Shown here piece by piece: positions 3,994-18,392 of a stretch of DNA of 44,150 nt. The notes under the pieces were generated by a model. The model searched no databases. It was not told the origin of the DNA and saw only the letters and a list, made by a program, of their open reading frames with translations. Position numbers and translations under genes: made by a program. Location: IMG/VR virus record IMGVR_UViG_3300045988_004957. One strand, given 5' to 3'. The stretch is from a virus. Taxonomy: Duplodnaviria; Heunggongvirae; Uroviricota; Caudoviricetes. The number at the start of each line of letters is the position of its first letter. Within the stretch, counting starts at the first letter, position 1.

Positions 3994-4505
3994 TGGATTT
4001 CGAAGAGTTTCTACTTAAAGCTCATCTGCTGGCGCGTGGGTTTGACGCTGACCGTCTCCAGGTAGTCTTAGCCCCTGGAGTAGCTACGTTTTACCTGTGG
4101 GGGTTTGACGGTAGGCTTCGCGGATACCAGCATTACAAACCACATGCCGAAAAGAACTGTAAAAACCCTAAAGACGCGCGGTACTTTACCAGAACAACAA
4201 GGCCGTGTTTATGGGGGCTTGAGTATTTGCCGGAAAGCGGGGTGGTATTTGTTACCGAAAGCATATTCAAAGCCGTAGCCTTGATGAATTGCGGGTTCAA
4301 TGCTGTAAGCGCACTGGGGTCAAATATATCAACAGACCTACGGCAGCAAATGTCACTTTTGCCGTATGACTGGGTGTGCGCTGGCGACAATGATAAAGCT
4401 GGATTAAAGTTCAGCAAAACATTCACCAGAGGATTTGTATCTAACGACCTTGATGAACTTTGTGAAGAAGAAATAACGTATCTTGCGAGGAAATTTACCA
4501 GATGA
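3990..4505 (+). CDS. Toprim-domain protein (primase-like)
   Basis: Toprim signature E ... DxD (VFVTESIFKA ... VCAGDNDKAG); start overlaps helicase stop. Confidence 0.55.
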   Translation: MMDFEEFLLKAHLLARGFDADRLQVVLAPGVATFYLWGFDGRLRGYQHYKPHAEKNCKNPKDARYFTRTTRPCLWGLEYLPESGVVFVTESIFKAVALMNCGFNAVSALGSNISTDLRQQMSLLPYDWVCAGDNDKAGLKFSKTFTRGFVSNDLDELCEEEITYLARKFTR

Positions 4506-6665: not shown

Positions 6666-9233
6666 TTAATTAAAACCATTGCTGAATCCGTCGGAGAAAC
6701 CGCTGCCGTATGGCGCGACGCCGTCGTATTTATAGAATCCGTCATCATAGTTGTAGCCCGTAATCTTGACCGTGCGGTCGTCGCCGGGGTCGATTGAAGA
6801 AACAACTATCTTCTGAGCATTATGCCTTGCTTCGTTGCCGAATGAAAACTCAGTTTTTAGCGCACTATTCCCCGTGTAGATTGCCTCCTCCGGCGCGGAG
6901 AGCATAATCACTTCGCGGTCGTGGCTTCCTTTGATAACAGAAATACTCTGCACAGAGCCGTCGCGCTTCTTAAGAATGATGGAATGGTCATCACCAGGAG
7001 TAAACGTAACAGGCTGAGACAGCGTCAGCGTAAGGCCATTGACGGCAACAACATAACCATCCTGCGGCGCGATACGCGAGCCTTTAACCACACTGATTAC
7101 GCCGCCGGGAGTAGCGAGAGCGCCTTCTTCGGTAGCTTCGAACTCTACGACAACTTTACTTAACGTGTTGCGCTGGTAGCGACGCCACGCCAGCCAGTAC
7201 GCTTGCTGATAGTTACGTACACCCTTCGATTCGTACTCCTCGGTGTTCGCGCCGAGTTCTTCCGGGATATAAATCGTCTCCTGTACGTTTGTATCCGGGT
7301 CAATGTACGAGAACGACAGGCTATCGTAGGTTGTCGAATCGTTGAACGTGCGCGTCCATTTCTCCGTACCGGTCGTTTTGCTGCGGTGGGTGAAAACCAT
7401 CTCAGGCCCCGCAACAGGACGGTCGAATCGCAGCATAATATCAGCACCTTTACGGTATGCCGTACAAAACACGGCTTCCGCGATGGTCTGAACGATGTCT
7501 TGCATGGTTGTGTCGTAGTCGTCGAATGTGTAGCAGAACTGCCCGGCTAATTCACTGTCAAAATACGACTCAATTTCTTCCTGCACGGCAAGTAACTTGT
7601 CCATATTTGCCGTTGTCAGTTCCAGATTACCCACCACAGGGTCACGCGCCAGCCTGATTAGCGACTGCACGGCCTGAGTGTTCGGTGTCATTACCGTATC
7701 GAATACGCCGTTACCTAAGTATTTGTAGCACATCTCGGTTGCAATCATGCGCAGTTCCGGTTCGGACACCTCGGCTGCACGTGGGGTTTGTTTACGGGCG
7801 CAGTGTACGGTAGTACGGTTGCCGTAGTGGGGGGTTGTGTCCAGCGACTGCCCATACAGATTAGTGAAAGTAACCTCGTCGCTAACAGTACCTTCAAAAT
7901 CTTTATCGGTGTCCGAAACACGACGCATACGGGCGCGGAATCTGGAAGCAGTTGGTAAACTTCCGTAAAGAGTAATCCCTGTGTAATCCGTGTTCCGGCC
8001 TGTTACGGTTCCTCGTACGGTAAATATGTCACCTACAGGCTGTTTCAATTCATCTACCATCTGGTATTGCAGTTCGACTGTCACTGAAGCGCGGTTATAG
8101 TCGCCGTTGTATTTGTACATGCCGTTGCTGGCAGCCACATTGGCTACAACACGGTCGACGGTTCCGCGGGTGATGTACGCCCATTCAGAGAGGGAAGCCG
8201 CGTAAGTATCCGCCGGGCCTATAAGATGGTTGCCCTCTTCACCTATAAACCACACAGACGTCCCTAGCTGGTTCCATACTGATTGATTAGGGCTGATATC
8301 TACCGTTAGCGTGGTTTCACTAACCGAAAGGACAGTGTACCCCCCGTCCAGGTTAACCTCATTACCTAAAGACCCTGGGGTTGTGTCTGCATATACGTTA
8401 TCGAAATATGCCATGTCTCCGACCGCCAAAAACTCATCGAAACCAGCGTCATCGCCTACTACAACGCCGGTTGTTCCCTGCCGTTGGACGGTGTAGCCCT
8501 GCACGTCTATAGCAATGTCATTAGGTGCGGGAAGAACAGCGCCATCGACATCGGCATTCTTAAATGTAACGTACAACTTCTGGTCTATCGGGTCGCCAAT
8601 ATGCAATTGTGGGGCGTTGGTGTTATTCGGCGAAGTGTAAGGGGAATACACCGCCACCGACGAGCCAGTTATCTCGCTGATTCGGGTATCTGCCTCAGTT
8701 ACACCGTCTTCCTCAATATGTAGATACCCACGACCGGCGTCGTAGTACGCGTATTCAATAAGCGCCCCCGCGGCATTAAACACCTTATATGTCTGCATCA
8801 GGTCATTGGGGATGGTCTGCACTGTCCCGCAGATATCATAGGAACGCTCATAAGGTCGTGGCTTGTTTGAGCGGTCGGTGAGACTGTTGTTAGGCGACGT
8901 AGCCTGATTGTTGGTAGCGGAATAATTAGCGTTAGCCGCTGTGTTTAGCCCGAACAATTTGGCGATTGGCTTAAGGATGAAACTGAATACACTCCCGATG
9001 GCGTCGCCAATGCCGCCGCCAGCGCCCTCAATAATGTGGTACACGGCGTCCTCGTCTTTGAGCGCGTCGAAGTCGTCTGTAACATCAGTATCATCACCAA
9101 TCTCGCCAAGATAGACGCGTACCGGAACGCCGTCCGGGATACGGTTAACGACAAACTCCATCGGCATCCCGACGTGTTTTGTACGGTTGAAAGCGCCATC
9201 AGCGTTTCGCGTGTAGTGCAGGATTATCGCCAA
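6666..9233 (-). CDS. central tail fiber / host specificity protein (J-like)
   Basis: 855 aa ORF directly downstream of K/L-like tail genes in the minus-strand tail operon. Confidence 0.6.
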   Translation of the reverse strand: MAIILHYTRNADGAFNRTKHVGMPMEFVVNRIPDGVPVRVYLGEIGDDTDVTDDFDALKDEDAVYHIIEGAGGGIGDAIGSVFSFILKPIAKLFGLNTAANANYSATNNQATSPNNSLTDRSNKPRPYERSYDICGTVQTIPNDLMQTYKVFNAAGALIEYAYYDAGRGYLHIEEDGVTEADTRISEITGSSVAVYSPYTSPNNTNAPQLHIGDPIDQKLYVTFKNADVDGAVLPAPNDIAIDVQGYTVQRQGTTGVVVGDDAGFDEFLAVGDMAYFDNVYADTTPGSLGNEVNLDGGYTVLSVSETTLTVDISPNQSVWNQLGTSVWFIGEEGNHLIGPADTYAASLSEWAYITRGTVDRVVANVAASNGMYKYNGDYNRASVTVELQYQMVDELKQPVGDIFTVRGTVTGRNTDYTGITLYGSLPTASRFRARMRRVSDTDKDFEGTVSDEVTFTNLYGQSLDTTPHYGNRTTVHCARKQTPRAAEVSEPELRMIATEMCYKYLGNGVFDTVMTPNTQAVQSLIRLARDPVVGNLELTTANMDKLLAVQEEIESYFDSELAGQFCYTFDDYDTTMQDIVQTIAEAVFCTAYRKGADIMLRFDRPVAGPEMVFTHRSKTTGTEKWTRTFNDSTTYDSLSFSYIDPDTNVQETIYIPEELGANTEEYESKGVRNYQQAYWLAWRRYQRNTLSKVVVEFEATEEGALATPGGVISVVKGSRIAPQDGYVVAVNGLTLTLSQPVTFTPGDDHSIILKKRDGSVQSISVIKGSHDREVIMLSAPEEAIYTGNSALKTEFSFGNEARHNAQKIVVSSIDPGDDRTVKITGYNYDDGFYKYDGVAPYGSGFSDGFSNGFN

Positions 9234-11502: not shown

Positions 11503-13841
11503 TATTTAAACCCCGGCGCATTTCTTGTGGCCTTGCGGGCCTTGCTAATCTTACTGTTACTGTTCTGCAAAGAGGCAGCCACTTGCTCCTCGATGATGAT
11601 ACGCAAACGGCCTTCATCATCTTGCTCAGTGGATACGTTGCCGATTTGAGAACTCGTGTTGTTTACGATAGTAACATTAGACGGTCCGGAAGAAGACCCG
11701 TTTTGCCCCATAATTTCTTTCATCTGCTGTGCGGTGCGTACACGTGACGCACCAGCGGGCATGATAACTTCTGGTTTACCGCGTTCGGCGATGGTTGAAG
11801 CCTGCCCCGCGGATAACTGTCCGCCCTGTTCACGTGCGGACCTGATAGCGGAAATCTGCGCCATACCCGCCCCAACGGCAGCAGCGGCAGCTACAGGAGC
11901 CAGGAACGGGCCAACTACAGGGATAGCCGCTGTTGACTTATACGCCTCAATAGCCGCGGTGTACGTGGCTATAGTGGCCTGCACGATAGCGAATGCCTTG
12001 TACGCGCCAGAAGCCTCGCCCAAAGCCGAACCGATGTTTGAGGCCATGTTACCGAAGGCCGTTGCCGTTGCGTCGGCACGCTTCGTGGCGTACTGCTCGT
12101 TGATGGCATTAAGCGCAGCCTGATACTGCTTCTCACTAATCAAACCCTGCTCGCGGTACTTATCTGCTACCGACAGTTTCTGCTGTTCCTGAATGTTGAG
12201 AAGCTCAAGCTCAGCGGCGTTCTGACCCATAATCTGAGCCATGAAGTCTTCACCTTTCTGGTTCTTTTCCTGCCGTTCTTTCTCTCGTTTAGCGAGTTCC
12301 TCCTGGCGAGCAGTGTCCGCTTCCAGCATAATCTGCGTCTTGGCGTTTTCGTACTGCTGGTCGCTAAGAAGCTGATTGCCGTAAAACTCCTGTAGCTTGG
12401 TTAACTGCTGTTCCTGGTTGGCTTCTATTTTCTGGAATACGTCATCATTGAGATGAATTGACTGATAGTAGAAATCCTCCGCGGCTTTCTTCTGGCGCTC
12501 GAACGCATCCGCTGCTTTCTTAGCGGCTTTTGCACCCGCGCTATCATCTTCAGATCCGCCGCCGGTACCAGTTACCTTAAATTTACTAAGCCCTTCTTCC
12601 TTAGCGGCTTCTTTGTCGATGTCATACGCTGCGCGTTTAAGCGCGACGATATTTTGCTGAGCCTCCACCTGTTCGCGGAAACTTTTACGTGTCAGGTCCG
12701 CAACGTCGCGCTGAGTATCCAGTGCCATCCCCAGCTGGAAGTTAATATTTTTTGCTACGTCTACGGATTCCCCTGGTGTGAAGGCGGCCTTAACCAGCCG
12801 ACCGGCATCCTGCGCCCCTTTAACCATATCCTCAAAGAAGCGCTCCATCGCGGTAAATTCTTCCGCGATGAAATCGAGCGCATCGGCGGCTGATTCCGCT
12901 ATGGTTGTCGCCGTTTGTTCGCCGCTATCCGTGATACTTTTGCTACTAAAATCCCAAAGCTCATTTAGCCCGTTTATCGCATCACCCACGAAACCAAATG
13001 CCGCGTCGAATGACATCTCTATTGCGCTTCCTACTTCCGACGCGATGTCACCCCACATACGCATCTCTGCGGCAAGTTCACCGGATGCAACCTGTGCGTT
13101 AAGTTCCTGGATTAAATCATCGATGTATCGGATAGGTTCGGCGAGCGCACCAACATCAAGACTGGTAGCCAGTGTCATTTTTAACTGCGACCATGAGTCG
13201 CTGGCACTGGCGATGGCCCCGTTAAGTGTGTTGGCCTGGTCCGCCATAGCCCCCGCGAAGTTTACGTTACCGATGTTGAGCAGGTATTGCTCGATGTCGG
13301 CAGCGCTCTTCTTAACTACCGTAGTAGTACCCTGGAATGTAAATTCAACATCGTTTTTGTTCTGTTTGGCCTTGATACCAAATTCTTTAAGGCGCTCAAA
13401 TTCAAAAGTACTAGCGTCTGCAACCGCCTCAATCATCTGATTCAGGTCTTTACCCATAGCAGCGGCGGTGTTTCCGTAGGAACGCAACGCTTCTTCTGAC
13501 GGTGTAAGACCAAGCGCCACAAGTTTACGGAATCCCTCTACCGCCTGTTCAAGGCCATACGGAGTGTCGCGCGCGAAGTCTTGCAGGATGCTTAACGCCT
13601 GTCTTGCACCCTGCGTGCTTCCGGTTAGTGTTTTCAGGCTGGCGGACATCTTGTCCAGTTGCCGTTGGGATTCTACCAGTTCCTGTGCGGCCTTGTAAGC
13701 GGTAGCGGCGACGATGGAAGCGAGGCCCGCTACCGCAGCTCCGGCTACCTTTGCAGACTTGGAAAGGTTATCAAGACGGTCTGATGTAGCTTTCGCGCCT
13801 TGCTCTGATACTTTTACAACTAAACTAGCTACATCAGCCAT
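11502..13841 (-). CDS. tail tape measure protein
   Basis: 779 aa, Ala/Gln/Glu-rich helical protein downstream of chaperone pair. Confidence 0.8.
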   Translation of the reverse strand: MADVASLVVKVSEQGAKATSDRLDNLSKSAKVAGAAVAGLASIVAATAYKAAQELVESQRQLDKMSASLKTLTGSTQGARQALSILQDFARDTPYGLEQAVEGFRKLVALGLTPSEEALRSYGNTAAAMGKDLNQMIEAVADASTFEFERLKEFGIKAKQNKNDVEFTFQGTTTVVKKSAADIEQYLLNIGNVNFAGAMADQANTLNGAIASASDSWSQLKMTLATSLDVGALAEPIRYIDDLIQELNAQVASGELAAEMRMWGDIASEVGSAIEMSFDAAFGFVGDAINGLNELWDFSSKSITDSGEQTATTIAESAADALDFIAEEFTAMERFFEDMVKGAQDAGRLVKAAFTPGESVDVAKNINFQLGMALDTQRDVADLTRKSFREQVEAQQNIVALKRAAYDIDKEAAKEEGLSKFKVTGTGGGSEDDSAGAKAAKKAADAFERQKKAAEDFYYQSIHLNDDVFQKIEANQEQQLTKLQEFYGNQLLSDQQYENAKTQIMLEADTARQEELAKREKERQEKNQKGEDFMAQIMGQNAAELELLNIQEQQKLSVADKYREQGLISEKQYQAALNAINEQYATKRADATATAFGNMASNIGSALGEASGAYKAFAIVQATIATYTAAIEAYKSTAAIPVVGPFLAPVAAAAAVGAGMAQISAIRSAREQGGQLSAGQASTIAERGKPEVIMPAGASRVRTAQQMKEIMGQNGSSSGPSNVTIVNNTSSQIGNVSTEQDDEGRLRIIIEEQVAASLQNSNSKISKARKATRNAPGFK

Positions 13842-14193
13842 CGTTTCTACCCTCGAAAATAGCGTCTAAGCTCATGATGATGTCAGATTCAAACATGCCT
13901 ATATTCTGGCCTGAAACGGTGCTGTATGCCACTAAATCCGACCATCTTAACTGTTCGCGCGGGTACATCTTGATGCCATCGTCATCCACTCGGCGGGTAA
14001 ATTTGATTTCCCGGTACTTCTCGAAGGTGGTTAATAGTTCAGGGGGGCATTCCGGCCCGGTGTCCTGCGTTGCTTCCGGCGCATCTTGCATAACCCCCAT
14101 AGCAATTAGCGCGGCTTTATGCCCGTCGGCAATACTGTCAAACTCCCGCCGTTTGTGGCGGGCTATGAAGTTCCAACGGGCAAACTGGAGCAA
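13834..14193 (-). CDS. tail assembly chaperone, T-like frame
   Basis: ORF in the -1 frame relative to the upstream chaperone, beginning before its stop; annotated start is TTG. Confidence 0.5.
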   Translation of the reverse strand: MLQFARWNFIARHKRREFDSIADGHKAALIAMGVMQDAPEATQDTGPECPPELLTTFEKYREIKFTRRVDDDGIKMYPREQLRWSDLVAYSTVSGQNIGMFESDIIMSLDAIFEGRNDG

Positions 14194-14198
14194 CGCGT

Positions 14199-14615
14199 CT
14201 ACTTTTCCTGCAATTGGTGAAGCTGTTCGTTGTGGAAAACAACAACGTGTTCAGCGAGGCGTTTATATTGTGAAAAAAGAGTATTCAGGTTCTCTTTATT
14301 AAATTCATCGTCGAGACTCCAACCGTTAACCAGTTCAAGTGCTAACTGGCGGTTAAGGTCCGTCGCGGCGTCTTCCATCTTAATGTTATATTCCGAGAAA
14401 TCTTTCAGTTCCTCGCATTTATCACGAAGCGGCTTCAGTTTACCTAACGACGCGCGGTACGCCAGGGTAAATGCACGCATGGCTTTAACCGCAACGTCTG
14501 CCTCCGGTGAAACAACGTTCAGCCACTCCCCTGAATCGGTGCCGTCTTTCAGTGGGATCGGCATACGGGCGCCTTTTTCTGCCTCAGCTTCGTAATAAAA
14601 ATCAGAAAGTTTCAT
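14199..14615 (-). CDS. tail assembly chaperone (G-like)
   Basis: 138 aa acidic ORF immediately upstream of the overlapping T-like frame and tape measure. Confidence 0.55.
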   Translation of the reverse strand: MKLSDFYYEAEAEKGARMPIPLKDGTDSGEWLNVVSPEADVAVKAMRAFTLAYRASLGKLKPLRDKCEELKDFSEYNIKMEDAATDLNRQLALELVNGWSLDDEFNKENLNTLFSQYKRLAEHVVVFHNEQLHQLQEK

Positions 14616-14722
14616 TCTTTAATCCTTTGGTTAAGAGGTTACGGGTTAAGGTTAATGCGCCAGACGGGAACCACCCGCTTTTCGTGTGCGACACTAGGCG
14701 CAAAATTATTCTATCACATTAC

Positions 14723-14751
14723 TTGCACACCCCAATATAATAGTGTACTAT
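14723..14751 (+). promoter_or_regulatory. sigma70-like promoter with embedded dyad (site 1)
   Basis: TTGCAC-17 bp-TACTAT; dyad AATAGT-GT-ACTATT at 14739..14752; 40 bp upstream of ATG 14793. Confidence 0.55.
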
Positions 14752-14792
14752 TCACTTACACCAACGATGTTATCCCAAACAGGAGCTACACC

Positions 14793-14984
14793 ATGACGGG
14801 TATTACTATGTTCTTCTTAATCATTATCGTTTTAGTTTATTTTATTCCATTTCTCGTGGCGCATATGCGCGACCATAAAGCGAAATTAGCGATATTCATG
14901 GCTAATCTGTTTCTTGGATGGGTTCTGCTGCCGTGGGTATTTATTTTAATCTGGGCTTGCAACTCGAATGTCAAAGAGAAGTGA
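14793..14984 (+). CDS. superinfection-immunity-like small membrane protein
   Basis: 63 aa, two TM helices, FIPFLVAHMRDH ... NLFLGWVLLPW pattern recalls Imm-type proteins; SD AGGAG 7 nt upstream. Confidence 0.5.
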   Translation: MTGITMFFLIIIVLVYFIPFLVAHMRDHKAKLAIFMANLFLGWVLLPWVFILIWACNSNVKEK

Positions 14985-15021
14985 GCTAGTATAGGACAAA
15001 TCCTAAGCACTAGGAATAAAC

Positions 15022-16152
15022 ATGGCCCGGAAGAAAATAACCGACGAACAGTTGCAGGAAGAATTGAACGCCGGTATGAAGAATGTAGATATCGCCCGTA
15101 AATACGGCATCTCAGACCGCGTAATTCGTATCCGTAAAGCGAAGCTGGCTAAGAAAGGCGTGGGCCACGGGCGCGACGTTAGCCACCTTGTGCCAGACGG
15201 CTACAAGATTAAAGGAACGTCGTCACTTGTGGACGAGTTCGGCAACACTAAGTTGCAATGGGTTAAGACTGATACCGACGCCGAACGTCAGGTTGAATTG
15301 ATGAAAGCCGTAATAGAGGGCATGAAGTCAGAGATTACGCCCGTTGCGCCTGTTAAAGCGGCGCGCGCCAAACGTGACGACAAGCTACTCAATCTTTACA
15401 CTGTATCTGATTTCCATCTCGGTATGCTGGCATGGGCCGATGAGAGCGGCGACGACTGGGACATGAAGATTGCAGAAGACCTGTTCTCTCGGTGGTTCGA
15501 CGCGGCGTTTCAGAAAGCACCGGATGCAGGAACAGGAGTTATTAACCTGCTTGGGGACTTCGCACACTTCGATAGTCTTGATGCCGTTACCCCGGAGTCG
15601 CGCCATGTATTAGATGCGGATACTCGCTATCAGAAACTGGTACGTTACATGATTCGTATGGTCCGCCGTGTTGTTGATATGGCGCTGGTTAAGCATCACA
15701 CAGTAAAACTTTTAATCGTTCAAGGTAACCACGACCCTGTTGGCTCCGTATGGCTTGCCGAAATGTTCACGGTTTTATACTCAAACGACAGCCGAGTGAT
15801 TGTTGATACGTCGCCGGATGTTTACAAGATGGTGCAACACGGCAAAACGACGCTGTTCTTCCATCACGGGCATAAAGCACGATTCGACGCTATCGAACCG
15901 GTTATGATTGCCAAGTTCCGTAAAGCGTTCGGCGAGAGTGTTTACAGCTACGCCCACGTAGGCCATCTGCACCACCAGAAGATTGTAGAAAGCCGTAACA
16001 TGATTATTGAGCAACACCGCACCTTAGCGGCTAAAGACGCCTACGCCTCTCGCGGCGGATGGATGTCGGGCCGCAGTGCAAATGTAATTACTTATAGCGC
16101 CGAATATGGCGAGGTCGCACGTTTAACTATTTCACCGGAGATGCTGGGATGA
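15022..16152 (+). CDS. metallophosphoesterase with N-terminal HTH-like region
   Basis: Calcineurin-like motifs DxH (SDFHLG), GDxxD (GDFAHFD), GNHD (QGNHDP), HHGH, GHLHH; basic HTH-like N-terminus. Confidence 0.7.
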   Translation: MARKKITDEQLQEELNAGMKNVDIARKYGISDRVIRIRKAKLAKKGVGHGRDVSHLVPDGYKIKGTSSLVDEFGNTKLQWVKTDTDAERQVELMKAVIEGMKSEITPVAPVKAARAKRDDKLLNLYTVSDFHLGMLAWADESGDDWDMKIAEDLFSRWFDAAFQKAPDAGTGVINLLGDFAHFDSLDAVTPESRHVLDADTRYQKLVRYMIRMVRRVVDMALVKHHTVKLLIVQGNHDPVGSVWLAEMFTVLYSNDSRVIVDTSPDVYKMVQHGKTTLFFHHGHKARFDAIEPVMIAKFRKAFGESVYSYAHVGHLHHQKIVESRNMIIEQHRTLAAKDAYASRGGWMSGRSANVITYSAEYGEVARLTISPEMLG

Positions 16153-16637
16153 AAGATATTGTAATTTTCGATTTAGACGGGACATTGGCCGACGGTACCC
16201 ATCGCTTACACCTGTTACCAAAAGATAACTACGGAGAAACGTGGGCGTGGAAGCCATTTAACATGGCCTGCAAAGATGACGCTCCGATATACGACAATAT
16301 CCATTTGTGTAGCGTACTGTGGCATTCCGGACTTACTATAATTATCCTTACCGGGCGAAGTGATGACGCTGAGGAGGAGACTCGCGAATGGTTACGAGAG
16401 AATAACGTTAGGTTTGACACGCTAATCATGCGCAGCAAACACGACAACAGAAAAGACATCGTAATTAAAGAAGAGGTGTTGCGTGCTTTCGGACTGGAAA
16501 GAATCTTGTGTGCGTTCGACGACTCTCCAGCGGTAATAAAGCATTTCCGTGACCTCGGCATAACCGCACACGCAGTTACCGAATACGACTGTAACGGGAA
16601 CTCTACACACTTAAAACCACACGGGAGCGATAAATAA
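16149..16637 (+). CDS. HAD-superfamily phosphatase
   Basis: N-terminal DxDGT motif (FDLDGTLADGT) and downstream Asp-rich motif; ATGA overlap with upstream gene. Confidence 0.65.
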   Translation: MKDIVIFDLDGTLADGTHRLHLLPKDNYGETWAWKPFNMACKDDAPIYDNIHLCSVLWHSGLTIIILTGRSDDAEEETREWLRENNVRFDTLIMRSKHDNRKDIVIKEEVLRAFGLERILCAFDDSPAVIKHFRDLGITAHAVTEYDCNGNSTHLKPHGSDK

Positions 16638-17191
16638 TGGCTAAGGTAATTATTCTTAATGGCCCCGCGGGTTGCGGGAAAGACACGCTTGCTATGGCGC
16701 TGGTAGAAATGGGCTTTGCGAAAGGAACTACCAGTTTCAAGAATCCAATGTTCAATATTGCTTTGGCAGCGTTAGGCCAGGATGCTTACCACGAATTTCT
16801 CGACGGCTACGACGACCGGGCGCGGAAAGAAAAACCCGAGGGTTTTCTTAATGGGTTGTCCCGCCGCCAGTTAATGATTGCCATTTCTGAGCAATTCATT
16901 AAACCGGTATTCGGCGATGATTATTTCGGTAAGTATCTTGCTGAAAACTTGCCTGACGGCGACGAAGTTTTTGTAGTGTCCGACGGTGGATTCGCCAGTG
17001 AAGTTGCCCCTATCGTCGCCGCGGGGCATGACGTGCGAATCGTCCGCCTCCATCGTGACGGCTATACGTTCATCGGCGATAGCCGTGGCTATCTGTACGA
17101 TGTTAGTGGTGTAAAAGATTACGACACCTACATCATACCGGGTGACGTTAAATCGAACGTTATAGACATTGCTTTAAAATTAGGTTTGTAA
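16637..17191 (+). CDS. P-loop kinase (dNMP-kinase-like)
   Basis: Walker A with GKDT variant (NGPAGCGKDTLA); 184 aa; last gene before terminator. Confidence 0.6.
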   Translation: MAKVIILNGPAGCGKDTLAMALVEMGFAKGTTSFKNPMFNIALAALGQDAYHEFLDGYDDRARKEKPEGFLNGLSRRQLMIAISEQFIKPVFGDDYFGKYLAENLPDGDEVFVVSDGGFASEVAPIVAAGHDVRIVRLHRDGYTFIGDSRGYLYDVSGVKDYDTYIIPGDVKSNVIDIALKLGL

Positions 17192-17195
17192 GAAA

Positions 17196-17222
17196 AAGGC
17201 CCCGAAAGGGGCCTTAGTTTTA
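17196..17222. terminator. bidirectional rho-independent terminator
   Basis: AAGGCCCC-GAAA-GGGGCCTT followed by AGTTTTA; near-identical to the terminator at 4644. Confidence 0.7.
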
Positions 17223-18392
17223 TGCGTAGGTGATACGTTGAATTACGATAGACGACTGGTACTGATTGCCGGTAGCCTGGCCTTCAATGGACTGAGTGAT
17301 TGACTCAGGCCCACCAATCTCAGGTGTAACCGCCGTAAGCTCTGCTCGTTTCAAACTGAAAGACATAGCCCCGTTTACCCCTGCCAGAATAGAGTTAATC
17401 TCTACCTGCTGCTCGTTGATAAACTTCTGAATCATCGCCATGTCGTACAGCTTGCCAGAGATAGAGAATGTGTTAGCTGCGCGTCCACGTTCGACGAACG
17501 CCACGCTACTGTTACCGAGTTCGAACTGCGCGGAAGCTCCGTTGTCGTTGGTGATGGTGAGAGTATCGCAACGCAACGGCGTGGAGCCATCGAACACCGA
17601 CACATCTACCGACGAGAACGGCTCATCGGTGAACGTAACCTGAGAGAAATCAGAGCCAGACGGCGGCGCGGTAAGAATCTCCTGACTCAGGCCGATGAAC
17701 GGGAAGCTGCCGGTGACCATGGCGTTAACCGCCTGCTCTACGGTAAAGCCAGAGATTTCCACACCTTTGGTCAGCATGTACGCGTCCGGGTTACCACACT
17801 GGCCCTTGAACCACGTCAGGATGGAGAACGTCTTACACGCGTTACCGGTTTCCAGCTTGTCGCCAGTTTTTGCGTCAGTGGTTACTGTCTCTGCTGTCAG
17901 CGTGTGCTGAATACCTGCGCCCGTAACTACCAGAGCGGAAACCGCGGTCACGATAAACGGTTTTGCGTTGTCGCCGGTTAAGTCGGTGAACGCAATAAGG
18001 TCGCCAACTTCTACACCGTCAGTAATGAAGCTACCGGCAGCGCGGGTGAATGTTTTACCTGCTGGGGCGACCATAATTTCGGCGCCAGTAATCTCTACCC
18101 CAGCTTGCCACGTAGAAGTCATCGCTCCCGCAAGGAAATCATCCTGGCTACGAGAGCTAAGTTCGATGGCGTACTCCCCGCTAACCTGTTTGTTACCGGT
18201 TCGGATGGATGTAGTTTCACGGCTGCCGTCTAGTTCGTTGGAAGTCAGCGCATCGCGGGTTACGGCAGGAACACCGCCAGTGTTACGCAACGGCGACCAG
18301 ACAGGGTTAGCCGGTGTTACGCCCGGGGTAGTTTCCGCCACATAGAATTGCGCGGTATTCGCGCCCTTAAAAGGAGTTGTAGCCATATTCAC
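17220..18392 (-). CDS. putative major tail protein
   Basis: 390 aa Thr/Gly/Ala-rich ORF at the position of a major tail subunit. Confidence 0.5.
   Translation of the reverse strand: MNMATTPFKGANTAQFYVAETTPGVTPANPVWSPLRNTGGVPAVTRDALTSNELDGSRETTSIRTGNKQVSGEYAIELSSRSQDDFLAGAMTSTWQAGVEITGAEIMVAPAGKTFTRAAGSFITDGVEVGDLIAFTDLTGDNAKPFIVTAVSALVVTGAGIQHTLTAETVTTDAKTGDKLETGNACKTFSILTWFKGQCGNPDAYMLTKGVEISGFTVEQAVNAMVTGSFPFIGLSQEILTAPPSGSDFSQVTFTDEPFSSVDVSVFDGSTPLRCDTLTITNDNGASAQFELGNSSVAFVERGRAANTFSISGKLYDMAMIQKFINEQQVEINSILAGVNGAMSFSLKRAELTAVTPEIGGPESITQSIEGQATGNQYQSSIVIQRITYA

Follow-up and report, generated by a model that had tools for sequence, protein, structure and literature searches.

Why a set of plus-strand enzyme genes lies within the minus-strand tail gene cluster of a siphophage, and whether these enzymes supply nucleotides or heal broken nucleic-acid ends, are the questions raised by the locus described here. 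The window (the whole stretch of DNA analysed, 44,150 nucleotides) is a complete genome of Kagunavirus, a coliphage group. Four plus-strand ORFs (14655-17191) are flanked by the minus-strand genes for a tail assembly chaperone (14199-14615) and for the major tail protein (17220-18392). Both GC skew and AT skew flip sign at 15-17 kb, as expected for a coding unit on the opposite strand, and the reversed orientation described in the initial annotation is confirmed. The operon runs in the same direction as the replication genes. It is already known, being a standard feature annotated in hundreds of Kagunavirus and related phages, and the same genes are annotated in a GenBank phage that is 99.7% identical across the operon region. 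The literature on these genes in Kagunavirus, Guernseyvirinae and Drexlerviridae yielded genome descriptions and a comparative study only. For this phage, our finding mainly corrects the interpretation of an already annotated operon, the features of which are as follows.

14713-14741, plus strand: candidate sigma-70-like promoter upstream of the Imm gene (ATCACA-17 nt-TATAAT)
14793-14984, plus strand: Imm-type superinfection immunity protein, 63 aa, start probable (PF14373, phrog_1039)
15022-16152, plus strand: HTH-metallophosphoesterase (MPE), 376 aa (phrog_704, six MPE motifs)
16149-16637, plus strand: stand-alone HAD phosphatase of the T4 Pnkp phosphatase-domain type, 162 aa (PF25109, phrog_415)
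16637-17191, plus strand: P-loop kinase with a predicted T4 gp1 / T5 Dnk dNMP kinase fold, 184 aa (phrog_139)
17196-17215, bidirectional: intrinsic terminator (terminator scan, RNA fold)

The first gene product matches Pfam Imm_superinfect PF14373 (E 3.6e-13; 49.6 bits, cut-off 27.9) and phrog_1039 (E 2e-26), and its 63-aa sequence contains two hydrophobic segments predicted to form helices. The above-threshold profile match to a small membrane protein places it among Imm superinfection immunity proteins. Position 14655, with which the unit had been made to begin, is the mechanical start of the ORF only. A CAGGAG ribosome-binding site is located 6 nt 5' of ATG 14793, L011 has an Imm ORF of equal length (63 aa), and the annotation of vB_Eco_K-02 includes a 192-nt CDS. 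Given this site and the length matching that of relatives, the true start is probably ATG 14793; the gene stands, at a different start. A consensus scan identified the candidate promoter at 14713-14741 (10/12 matches), the -10 element of which, together with the surrounding intergenic region, is strongly conserved across 39 related contigs. Over the region, 5 promoter-like sites were found against 6.0 expected, which is not above chance, and the promoter attributed to the unit is consequently no more than plausible, conserved though the site is. The terminator attributed to the unit was recovered as an 8-bp G+C-rich stem with a GAAA loop, matched by the scan on both strands and common to the convergent kinase and major tail genes. 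The corresponding RNA fold has a dG of -19.9 kcal/mol (z -3.85), and none of 200 shuffled sequences folds as well.

The MPE and HAD genes meet in an ATGA overlap and the HAD and kinase genes in a TAATG overlap. These stop/start overlaps indicate that the three genes form one translationally coupled operon. Profile searches of the three enzymes, the check suggested in the initial annotation, matched phrog_704 (MPE), PF25109 (HAD) and phrog_139 (kinase). With the Imm matches, these Pfam and PHROG hits bear out the gene inventory given there (Imm-like protein, HTH-MPE, HAD phosphatase and P-loop kinase with a GKDT Walker A).

The MPE matches phrog_704 with an E value of 3.7e-162. A helix-turn-helix similar to GerE/sigma-70 region 4 occupies the NH2 terminus (about residues 5-45), and HTH families are matched across members. 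It is joined through a conserved linker (S67, W80-V81-K82) to a binuclear domain (D130-x-H132, G178-D179, G235-N236-H237, H282, G314-H315, H317), which displays the full motif set of calcineurin-like binuclear MPEs (DxH, GD, GNH(D/E), H, GH, GxH). Among 56 diverse homologues, D130/H132, G178/D179, N236/H237, H282, G314 and H317 do not vary, and G235 and H315 are retained in 90% or more. A His is located three residues past the motif II Asp (GDFxH), as in Mre11. Pfam scores fall under the gathering cut-offs (Metallophos_2, 21.7 bits; Metallophos, 16.9 bits), so the protein belongs to the superfamily but to no curated Pfam family. The family is very large, as 4550 clusters (50% identity) match at E<=1e-3.

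The homologue search made for MPE structure prediction (single sequence and five-sequence profile) returned only matches at least 91% identical, and the AF2 model from that shallow alignment is unusable (pLDDT 49.9). Profile searches of the PDB with 5 and 56 sequences revealed no significant relative of the MPE. The best matches were SbcD/Mre11 and the P. putida MPE (E 0.09-0.3, not significant), along with GerE-type HTH proteins. Membership in either nuclease clade was rejected on these values, and no SbcC-like gene is adjacent. Homology to mycobacteriophage Bxb1 gp47 (A10ZJ24 gp48 family) was also rejected, as an hhalign probability of 4.5% reflects superfamily-level likeness only. Phage MPEs have been linked to DNA replication and host-genome damage (PMC12287305), and the P. 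putida nuclease leaves 3'-PO4 ends (PMC7826289). The HTH-MPE would most likely act on DNA, as a nuclease or phosphodiesterase.

The HAD protein matches PF25109 HAD_PNKP (E 3.3e-20; 73.1 bits, cut-off 27.6) and phrog_415 (E 3e-64), and its PDB matches are Pnkp1 4xrp (E 4e-6) and T4 Pnkp 5uj0 and 1ltq. T4 residues D165/D167/T169/S211/R213/K258/D277/D278, the roles of which are described in PMC3592404, align to D8/D10/T12/T68/R70/K107/D124/D125. The DxDxT motif, the Ser/Thr and Lys ligands and the Mg-binding Asp pair are all present alongside the above-threshold profile match, and by these sequence features the phosphatase really is of the Pnkp 3'-phosphatase type and not a classical 5'-nucleotidase. 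GenBank labels such as '3'-phosphatase, 5'-polynucleotide kinase' overstate the content of the gene, and the 'polynucleotide kinase' is a phosphatase only. T4 Pnkp phosphatase also hydrolyses the mononucleotide 3'-dTMP, and the T4 HAD domain alone removes cyclic phosphates (PMC3592404). Because that domain works unaided, the additional 2',3'-phosphoesterase included in the initial end-healing proposal, a part for which the MPE was the candidate, is not needed.

In the kinase, the Walker A motif G12-C-G-K15-D16-T17 is invariant in 32 homologues, and phrog_139 matches both the window protein (E 7e-45) and T4 gp1 (E 1.8e-65) over the same profile region. The AF2 model (pLDDT 94) has a P-loop NMP-kinase fold, and its best structural match is T4 dNMP kinase 1DEK. 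The G-x-G-K-D-T Walker A and the profile match assign the protein to the T4 gp1-type family. A polynucleotide 5'-kinase (T4 Pnkp N-terminal, Clp1 or Trl1 type), the role foreseen for it under end healing, was considered and rejected, as the Asp general base expected after strand 2 is replaced by an invariant Lys, and fold and family are those of dNMP kinases. By sequence and model, the P-loop protein is a predicted dNMP kinase with the corresponding fold, not a polynucleotide kinase.

Comparison with the ligand residues of T4 dNMP kinase (Table 2 of PMC10653934) revealed that three of the four dNMP-phosphate ligands (K37/R68/R132, here K35/R61/R77) and both acidic base-reading residues (D175/E181, here D116/E122) are kept, and all are invariant or nearly so in the kinase clade. 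The sixth residue, T4 Arg177, a contact of the base as well as of the dNMP phosphate (PMC10653934), is an invariant Gly (G118) in the clade, and the acceptor could therefore differ. Conservation of five of the six dNMP-binding residues is read from a 24%-identity alignment bridged by intermediates. With T4 gp1 and T5 Dnk, the protein shares no more than 22-24% identity overall, alignment of the clade profile with the T4 gp1 sequence covers only the 38 NH2-terminal residues (probability 40%), and PDB sequence searches with the single sequence and the profile gave generic P-loop matches only. The link to T4 gp1 is provided by the shared PHROG, the fold and the bridged MAFFT alignment. Characterized by D116-G-G-F and G-D148-S-R150 motifs, this distinct short clade is the third among T4 gp1-like kinases, and its acceptor site is altered.

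Kinase homologues adjoin thymidylate synthase and ribonucleotide reductase genes in Vequintavirinae, a dUTPase gene in phiEcoM-GJ1 and a T7-type exo/endonuclease pair in Autographiviridae. The kinase is also paired with a second, unrelated HAD family, which passes the Pfam NT5C deoxynucleotidase threshold in phages nomo and CR9; the partner in ICP1 belongs to the same PHROG family as these NT5C-type proteins. Acinetobacter phage Aci05 carries the kinase and, elsewhere in the genome, an RNA ligase adjoining a gene annotated as a Pnkp-type 3'-phosphatase/5'-kinase. The initial annotation had left two readings side by side, nucleotide salvage and end healing. The dNMP-kinase type, these neighbourhoods and the missing Asp general base favour nucleotide metabolism, and end healing in general is unlikely.

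We tentatively favour, at somewhat less than an even chance, a cassette that acts as a nucleotide-supply helper over an RNA or end-repair kit. The observations comprise the structure of the genes, the identities of domains and folds, the intactness of active sites, the neighbourhoods and the presence/absence polymorphism; we infer all substrates, the direction of flux, any cooperation between MPE and cassette, and the timing of expression. The unit is a conserved accessory operon of Guernseyvirinae siphophages, placed between the major tail and tail chaperone genes. In this operon, the Imm-type inner-membrane protein presumably excludes superinfecting phage DNA, and the Pnkp-type HAD phosphatase and the T4 gp1-fold predicted dNMP kinase form an exchangeable two-gene cassette behind the core MPE. 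The cassette would most likely raise or reshape the deoxynucleotide supply for phage DNA synthesis, drawing on products of nucleic-acid breakdown. In this route, 5'-dNMPs would be turned by the kinase into dNDPs, and these by host Ndk into dNTPs, and the HAD enzyme would strip 3'-phosphates from 3'-(d)NMPs or 3'-phosphorylated fragments for further degradation or reuse. A study of the Drexlerviridae exonuclease-PNK-dNMPK genes proposes the same, namely that the pair adds to the replication module and improves the supply of nucleotides (PMC13164509). Moreover, a T4-like dNMPK borne by a mobile element provides thymidylate kinase function in P. putida (PMC10653934). Against this reading count the membership of the phosphatase in the polynucleotide 3'-phosphatase family, an activity for which the classical path leading from 5'-dNMP to dNTP has no evident use, as well as the low identity and lost Arg177 of the kinase clade and the frequent occurrence of the MPE without the cassette.

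Kagunavirus, Webervirus and Eracentumvirus have the MPE-HAD-kinase order in common, which is thus maintained across three phage families at 40-50% identity, and a DNA ligase gene follows the trio in the Eracentumvirus-like genomes phiEa1H, L074 and L077, an arrangement that fits DNA-end processing equally well. A DNA ligase gene also adjoins the MPE gene in a Campylobacter phage, and in L086 one is found downstream of the MPE gene. These arrangements agree with an end-healing or repair system in which the MPE trims or opens ends that are damaged (by a 2',3'-cyclic phosphate or 3'-phosphate, or as blocked DNA ends), the HAD protein removes 3'-phosphates and the kinase phosphorylates 5'-OH ends, the whole amounting to a split, non-orthologous Pnkp. 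Sealing would be left to LigA or RtcB of the host or to a phage DNA ligase where other phages have one, and the system would act against host nucleases whose cuts in tRNA or DNA have 3'-P/5'-OH ends. The complete catalytic match of the HAD protein to the T4 Pnkp phosphatase domain and Pnkp1 is in line with such a role, as are the HTH of the MPE, its weak, non-significant PDB likeness to SbcD/Mre11 and to the 3'-PO4-yielding P. putida enzyme, the loss of Arg177 in the kinase clade, and a patchy, cassette-like distribution typical of counter-defence genes. However, the kinase is of dNMP-kinase family and fold, with acceptor-phosphate ligands kept; its homologues lie among nucleotide-metabolism genes or beside an NT5C-type nucleotidase, and Aci05 has the kinase on top of an RNA ligase and an annotated Pnkp gene. 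In T7, moreover, the ligase (gene 1.3) is close to a nucleotide kinase (gene 1.7), so that in T7-like phages a kinase gene near a ligase gene has no specific value as evidence. Eight DNA/RNA ligase queries found no ligase in the window (best E 0.066), in keeping with the initial annotation, and ligase annotation is also missing in a 92.5%-identical relative. A HAD protein devoid of a kinase domain, a neighbouring kinase of dNMPK type and a window without ligase do not make up a complete system for healing and sealing ends. Healing of RNA ends by such a system finds no support, and we consider the composite end-healing reading distinctly unlikely. End processing by the phosphatase and the MPE themselves is possible, given the Pnkp-type phosphatase and the occurrence of the same trio followed by DNA ligase in some phages.

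Across Guernseyvirinae the unit maps to the same position, its core usually consisting of Imm and MPE, and only the phosphatase-kinase pair behaves as mobile cargo. The term 'island' applied to the locus is apt in part only. HAD and kinase genes are present in 14 of 41 Guernseyvirinae-type loci and are gained or lost together in all 14. In some loci, the MPE of which is at least 92% identical to that of the window, the pair is replaced by a gene encoding a 76-aa protein; being replaced in such close relatives, the cassette is dispensable. Cargo downstream of the MPE varies among HAD plus kinase, the 76-aa protein, HNH and Rha/ANT genes. Identification of the 76-aa protein as a T7 gp1.7-like (DUF3310-type) nucleotide kinase domain was rejected (BLASTP E 0.099, non-overlapping PHROG matches, hhalign 0.7%).

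Such exchanges would agree with a slot, between major tail and chaperone genes, that tolerates morons, in which four genes with unrelated jobs are co-located without cooperating. Imm would exclude superinfection, HAD and kinase would each act alone, and the MPE would have a part in replication, recombination or regulation, like the MPEs of cluster A mycobacteriophages (Bxb1 gp47, A10ZJ24 gp48). Of 80 sampled loci, 56 have the MPE without HAD or kinase, and it is a persistent core gene of Drexlerviridae, where it adjoins the lysis cassette (PMC13164509). The kinase is found alone in several phages, and the HAD gene without the kinase in L066, L071, L078, L079 and L086. The translational coupling of the three genes, the joint gain and loss of HAD and kinase, the pairing of the kinase with HADs of two different families in distant phages and the three-gene order kept across three phage families speak against this explanation, which we regard as rather unlikely.

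The patchy distribution of the accessory pair also bears on immunity. It is unlikely, in our view, that the HAD and dNMP-kinase-fold cassette, perhaps with the HTH-MPE, is a counter-defence module instead of a simple salvage system. Such a module could restore or protect deoxynucleotide pools, or remove dNMP-type alarms, under nucleotide-depleting or nucleotide-sensing immunity. Alternatively, it could be a split Pnkp, in which the Arg177-less dNMP-kinase fold has been recruited to phosphorylate 5'-OH nucleic-acid ends. The specific proposal that the cassette, possibly with the MPE, restores dNTPs in hosts with dNTP-depleting defences, or destroys alarms such as m6-dAMP and other dNMPs or cyclic nucleotides, is very improbable. 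A host defence made of a calcineurin-like MPE and a HAD protein has free deoxynucleotides as its substrates and responds to a dNMP set free in host DNA breakdown (PMC12871103), which demonstrates that nucleotides can be the targets of this enzyme pair; the reaction catalysed by a dNMP kinase is the opposite one. Yet counter-defence in that system is reported to be exerted by DNA-mimic proteins, not kinases (PMC12871103), and the HTH of the MPE points to DNA rather than to small molecules. PADLOC defence models gave no credible match for any of the four proteins, the sole match being that of the kinase to PDC-S73 (E 0.044). Because the pair is gained and lost among near-identical phages, these provide natural isogenic pairs in which nucleotide supply and counter-defence can be tested.

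Each component of the operon resembles a known system and departs from it. Like T4 Imm, the first protein is a small two-helix membrane protein matching Imm_superinfect, but in some relatives of this phage another small protein fills its position. The HAD protein shares the DxDxT acylphosphatase and every catalytic residue with the COOH-terminal domain of T4 Pnkp (PseT) and with Capnocytophaga Pnkp1. In contrast to these, it has nothing beyond the phosphatase domain, the kinase beside it is encoded separately and belongs to a different kinase family, and there is no RNA ligase partner. The kinase is shorter than T4 gp1 (1DEK/1DEL) and T5 Dnk (184 versus 241-250 aa), with a much shorter helical insert domain. 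Moreover, its clade has the Gly of D-G-G-F in place of Arg177 and a G-D-S-R motif of its own, and it is encoded by a dispensable cassette gene, not an essential one. The MPE has the six-motif binuclear metal centre in common with Mre11/SbcD, the P. putida MPE (6NVO), the C. thermocellum Pnkp phosphatase and Bxb1 gp47 / A10ZJ24 gp48. The NH2-terminal HTH and the conserved linker are specific to this MPE family, which comprises thousands of sequence clusters and is encoded by a core gene in at least two large phage groups, and the SbcC/Rad50 partner of Mre11/SbcD is absent. The closest arrangements are the Drexlerviridae exonuclease-PNK-dNMPK genes and the Eracentumvirus MPE-HAD-kinase-ligase block, in which a homologous trio occurs in the same order with MPEs about 40-50% identical. 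There, the trio is located before the lysis cassette or inside a T7-like DNA-metabolism block, whereas in the phage described here it is antisense within the tail module, behind an Imm gene and without a ligase.

The unit described in the initial annotation as an enzyme island is made up of four co-oriented plus-strand ORFs and, as the ORF listing confirms, is located within minus-strand tail genes:

14199-14615, minus strand, tail assembly chaperone (ORF listing)
15022-16152, plus strand, metallophosphoesterase (MPE) with a helix-turn-helix (HTH)-like N-terminus, 376 residues
16149-16637, plus strand, HAD phosphatase, 162 residues
16637-17191, plus strand, P-loop kinase, 184 residues
17220-18392, minus strand, major tail gene (ORF listing)

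The MPE and HAD genes overlap at ATGA and the HAD and kinase genes at TAATG, and these stop/start overlaps place the three enzymes in one operon. Both GC skew and AT skew flip across 15-17 kb of the window. Region 14400-17400 matches 317 phage records in total; its identity is 99.7% with Escherichia phage vB_EcoS-22664BS2 and 87-93% with many genomes of Kagunavirus (Guernseyvirinae). Complete genomes of the Kagunavirus group range from 41 to 45 kb, and the window (44,150 bp) agrees with this in size. A 92.5%-identical relative has its lysis, head and tail genes on the strand opposite to its replication genes; there the operon maps within the tail module, on the replication-gene strand.

The first gene encodes an Imm-like protein, as proposed (PF14373, E 3.6e-13, and a phrog_1039 match in profile searches). 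Its ORF mechanically starts at 14655, and has the length annotated in relatives (63 residues) when started at ATG 14793, downstream of a CAGGAG ribosome-binding site, which is the likely start. The unit had also been credited with its own promoter. A candidate (ATCACA-17-TATAAT) is found at 14713-14741, in an intergenic region strongly conserved across 39 related contigs; since a scan found promoter-like sites in the region to be no commoner than expected by chance, this promoter is rated as plausible only. The terminator was recovered as an 8-bp G+C hairpin at 17196-17215, which scores in either orientation (dG -19.9 kcal/mol, z -3.85). Late minus-strand transcripts from the major tail gene (13834-18392 region) would either stop at this hairpin or, to extend into the chaperone and tape-measure genes, run antisense through the whole operon. 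Such a convergent layout could set the tail-tube:chaperone ratio and, in the late phase of infection, shut the operon down. Short direct repeats of the GGTTAA type (GGTTAAGAGGTTACGGGTTAAGGTTAATG) occur at 14631-14657, in the divergent intergenic region beside the chaperone start. Their copy number differs between relatives, one of which (locus L014) has an additional GGTTAAGGTTAA; they may have a regulatory role or form a site prone to recombination.

Gene content is swapped at the position following the MPE gene. Among 41 loci flanked by Guernseyvirinae chaperone and major tail genes, 14 carry the HAD-kinase cassette, 25 a 76-residue protein (phrog_2452), alone or accompanied by HNH or Rha/ANT genes, and 2 carry nothing. 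The cassette and the 76-residue protein are mutually exclusive, even where the MPEs are 92-98% identical to that of the window. In Jerseyvirus S102, the MPE is accompanied by HNH and Rha/ANT genes in place of the cassette. The slot corresponds to 17192-17219 in the window, and to 7128-7358 and 4112-4342 in two loci encoding the 76-residue protein (L011 and L007, respectively). The helix pattern of this protein resembles that of the C-terminal domain of the T7 gp1.7 nucleotide kinase, but comparisons of the two did not support homology. The best-supported reading is that of an accessory operon, the variable cassette of which serves deoxynucleotide metabolism. One possibility is that the four genes simply co-occupy a permissive slot.

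The HAD phosphatase is clearly of the Pnkp type (PF25109 HAD_PNKP, 73 bits in the profile search), as also indicated by PDB matches to Pnkp1 and T4 Pnkp. Every catalytic residue of the T4 Pnkp phosphatase domain is conserved (residue roles from PMC3592404), and the protein is putatively active. Unlike full T4 Pnkp, it has no kinase domain. Homologues are named '3'-phosphatase, 5'-polynucleotide kinase', 'polynucleotide kinase' or 'putative kinase-phosphatase' in databases; the kinase-type names are over-annotations, as only the phosphatase domain is present in the 162-residue protein. Because Pnkp-type phosphatases also work on 3'-dNMP mononucleotides (PMC3592404), the HAD protein could clean up 3'-phosphorylated products of nucleic-acid breakdown, from which it would remove the 3'-phosphates.

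The MPE retains all six binuclear-centre motifs, which are conserved in 56 homologues (28-50% identity), and its predicted HTH is of the GerE/sigma-70 region 4 type. It matches phrog_704 (E 4e-162), the label of which, 'DNA repair exonuclease', is a database name lacking an experimental basis, and scores under the cut-offs of Pfam metallophosphoesterase models. A profile search of the PDB returned only SbcD/Mre11 and P. putida MPE matches, none significant, and kinship with Bxb1 gp47, which belongs to the phage MPE family examined in PMC12287305, is at the superfamily level only. The family is large (4550 clusters at 50% identity, E<=1e-3; 2014 phage records matched by tblastn). Carrying an HTH, the MPE most likely acts on DNA.

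The predicted P-loop kinase matches phrog_139 (E 7e-45, profile search), over the same profile segment as T4 gp1, a member of the same PHROG, and its AlphaFold model, with 32 diverse homologues, has a pLDDT of 94. In a bridged alignment, the T4 ligand residues (PMC10653934) K37, R68, R132 and D175 correspond to K35, R61, R77 and D116, and E181, M135 and R197 to E122, M80 and R140. The position of T4 R177 is occupied by the invariant G118, within a clade-specific D-G-G-F motif. T5 Dnk shares both the D-x-R motif and a large insert with the T4 kinase, which makes the window kinase a third clade.

In Vequintavirinae, this clade adjoins thymidylate synthase and ribonucleotide reductase genes, followed by a different HAD (phrog_420), which in phage nomo scores above the Pfam NT5C 5'(3')-deoxynucleotidase threshold. 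Loci with the phrog_420 HAD directly 3' of the kinase are:

L010, 3495-4696, phage nomo
L096, 3495-4752, phage CR9
L094, 2953-4271, phage ICP1

Kinase-HAD pairing thus arose with two unrelated HAD families. The kinase lies between DNA ligase and dUTPase genes in phiEcoM-GJ1; in Vibrio FE11 and Marinomonas CB5A, it comes after the T7-type exonuclease and endonuclease genes. Acinetobacter Aci05 carries the kinase and, apart from it, an RNA ligase gene and one that is annotated as Pnkp. Taken together, fold, family, ligand conservation and neighbourhoods provide fairly strong support for a role of the kinase in deoxynucleotide metabolism.

End healing of nucleic acids by the three enzymes keeps some weight, given the family of the HAD phosphatase and the recurrence of the MPE-HAD-kinase(-ligase) order. 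This order is also found in Klebsiella Webervirus (Drexlerviridae), as read from gene coordinates, and in Erwinia phage phiEa1H (Autographiviridae), there with a DNA ligase downstream. In CB5A (L099, 2452-5034; exonuclease-endonuclease-MPE-kinase-ligase), the place that the HTH-MPE has in phiEa1H is taken by an MPE from a different family (phrog_221), which suggests non-orthologous replacement. Of 80 IMG/VR loci retrieved by the MPE, 16 encode HAD and kinase (2 with a ligase), 5 HAD without kinase (1 with a ligase), 3 kinase without HAD, and 56 neither. In three divergent loci lacking HAD (L075 and L081, 5375-5998; L068, 307-930), with MPEs about 53% identical, the kinase is directly upstream, not downstream, of the MPE. 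In agreement with the initial annotation, none of eight DNA and RNA ligase queries matched the window. End healing would need a kinase with a changed acceptor, which the loss of Arg177 makes conceivable. Counter-defence acting at the nucleotide level is a further possibility; the precedent for such an enzyme pair working on free nucleotides is a system of the host, made up of an MPE and a HAD, that targets deoxynucleotides (PMC12871103).

In T7, a ligase (gene 1.3) is located near a nucleotide kinase (gene 1.7) unrelated to that of the window. According to a 2026 paper (PMC13164509), the 'DNA repair exonuclease' gene of Drexlerviridae is most often followed by genes for a 'polynucleotide kinase' and a 'dNMP kinase', proposed to enhance nucleotide supply. 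Hundreds of deposited genomes carry annotations of the window's genes, and their arrangement has been treated in print.
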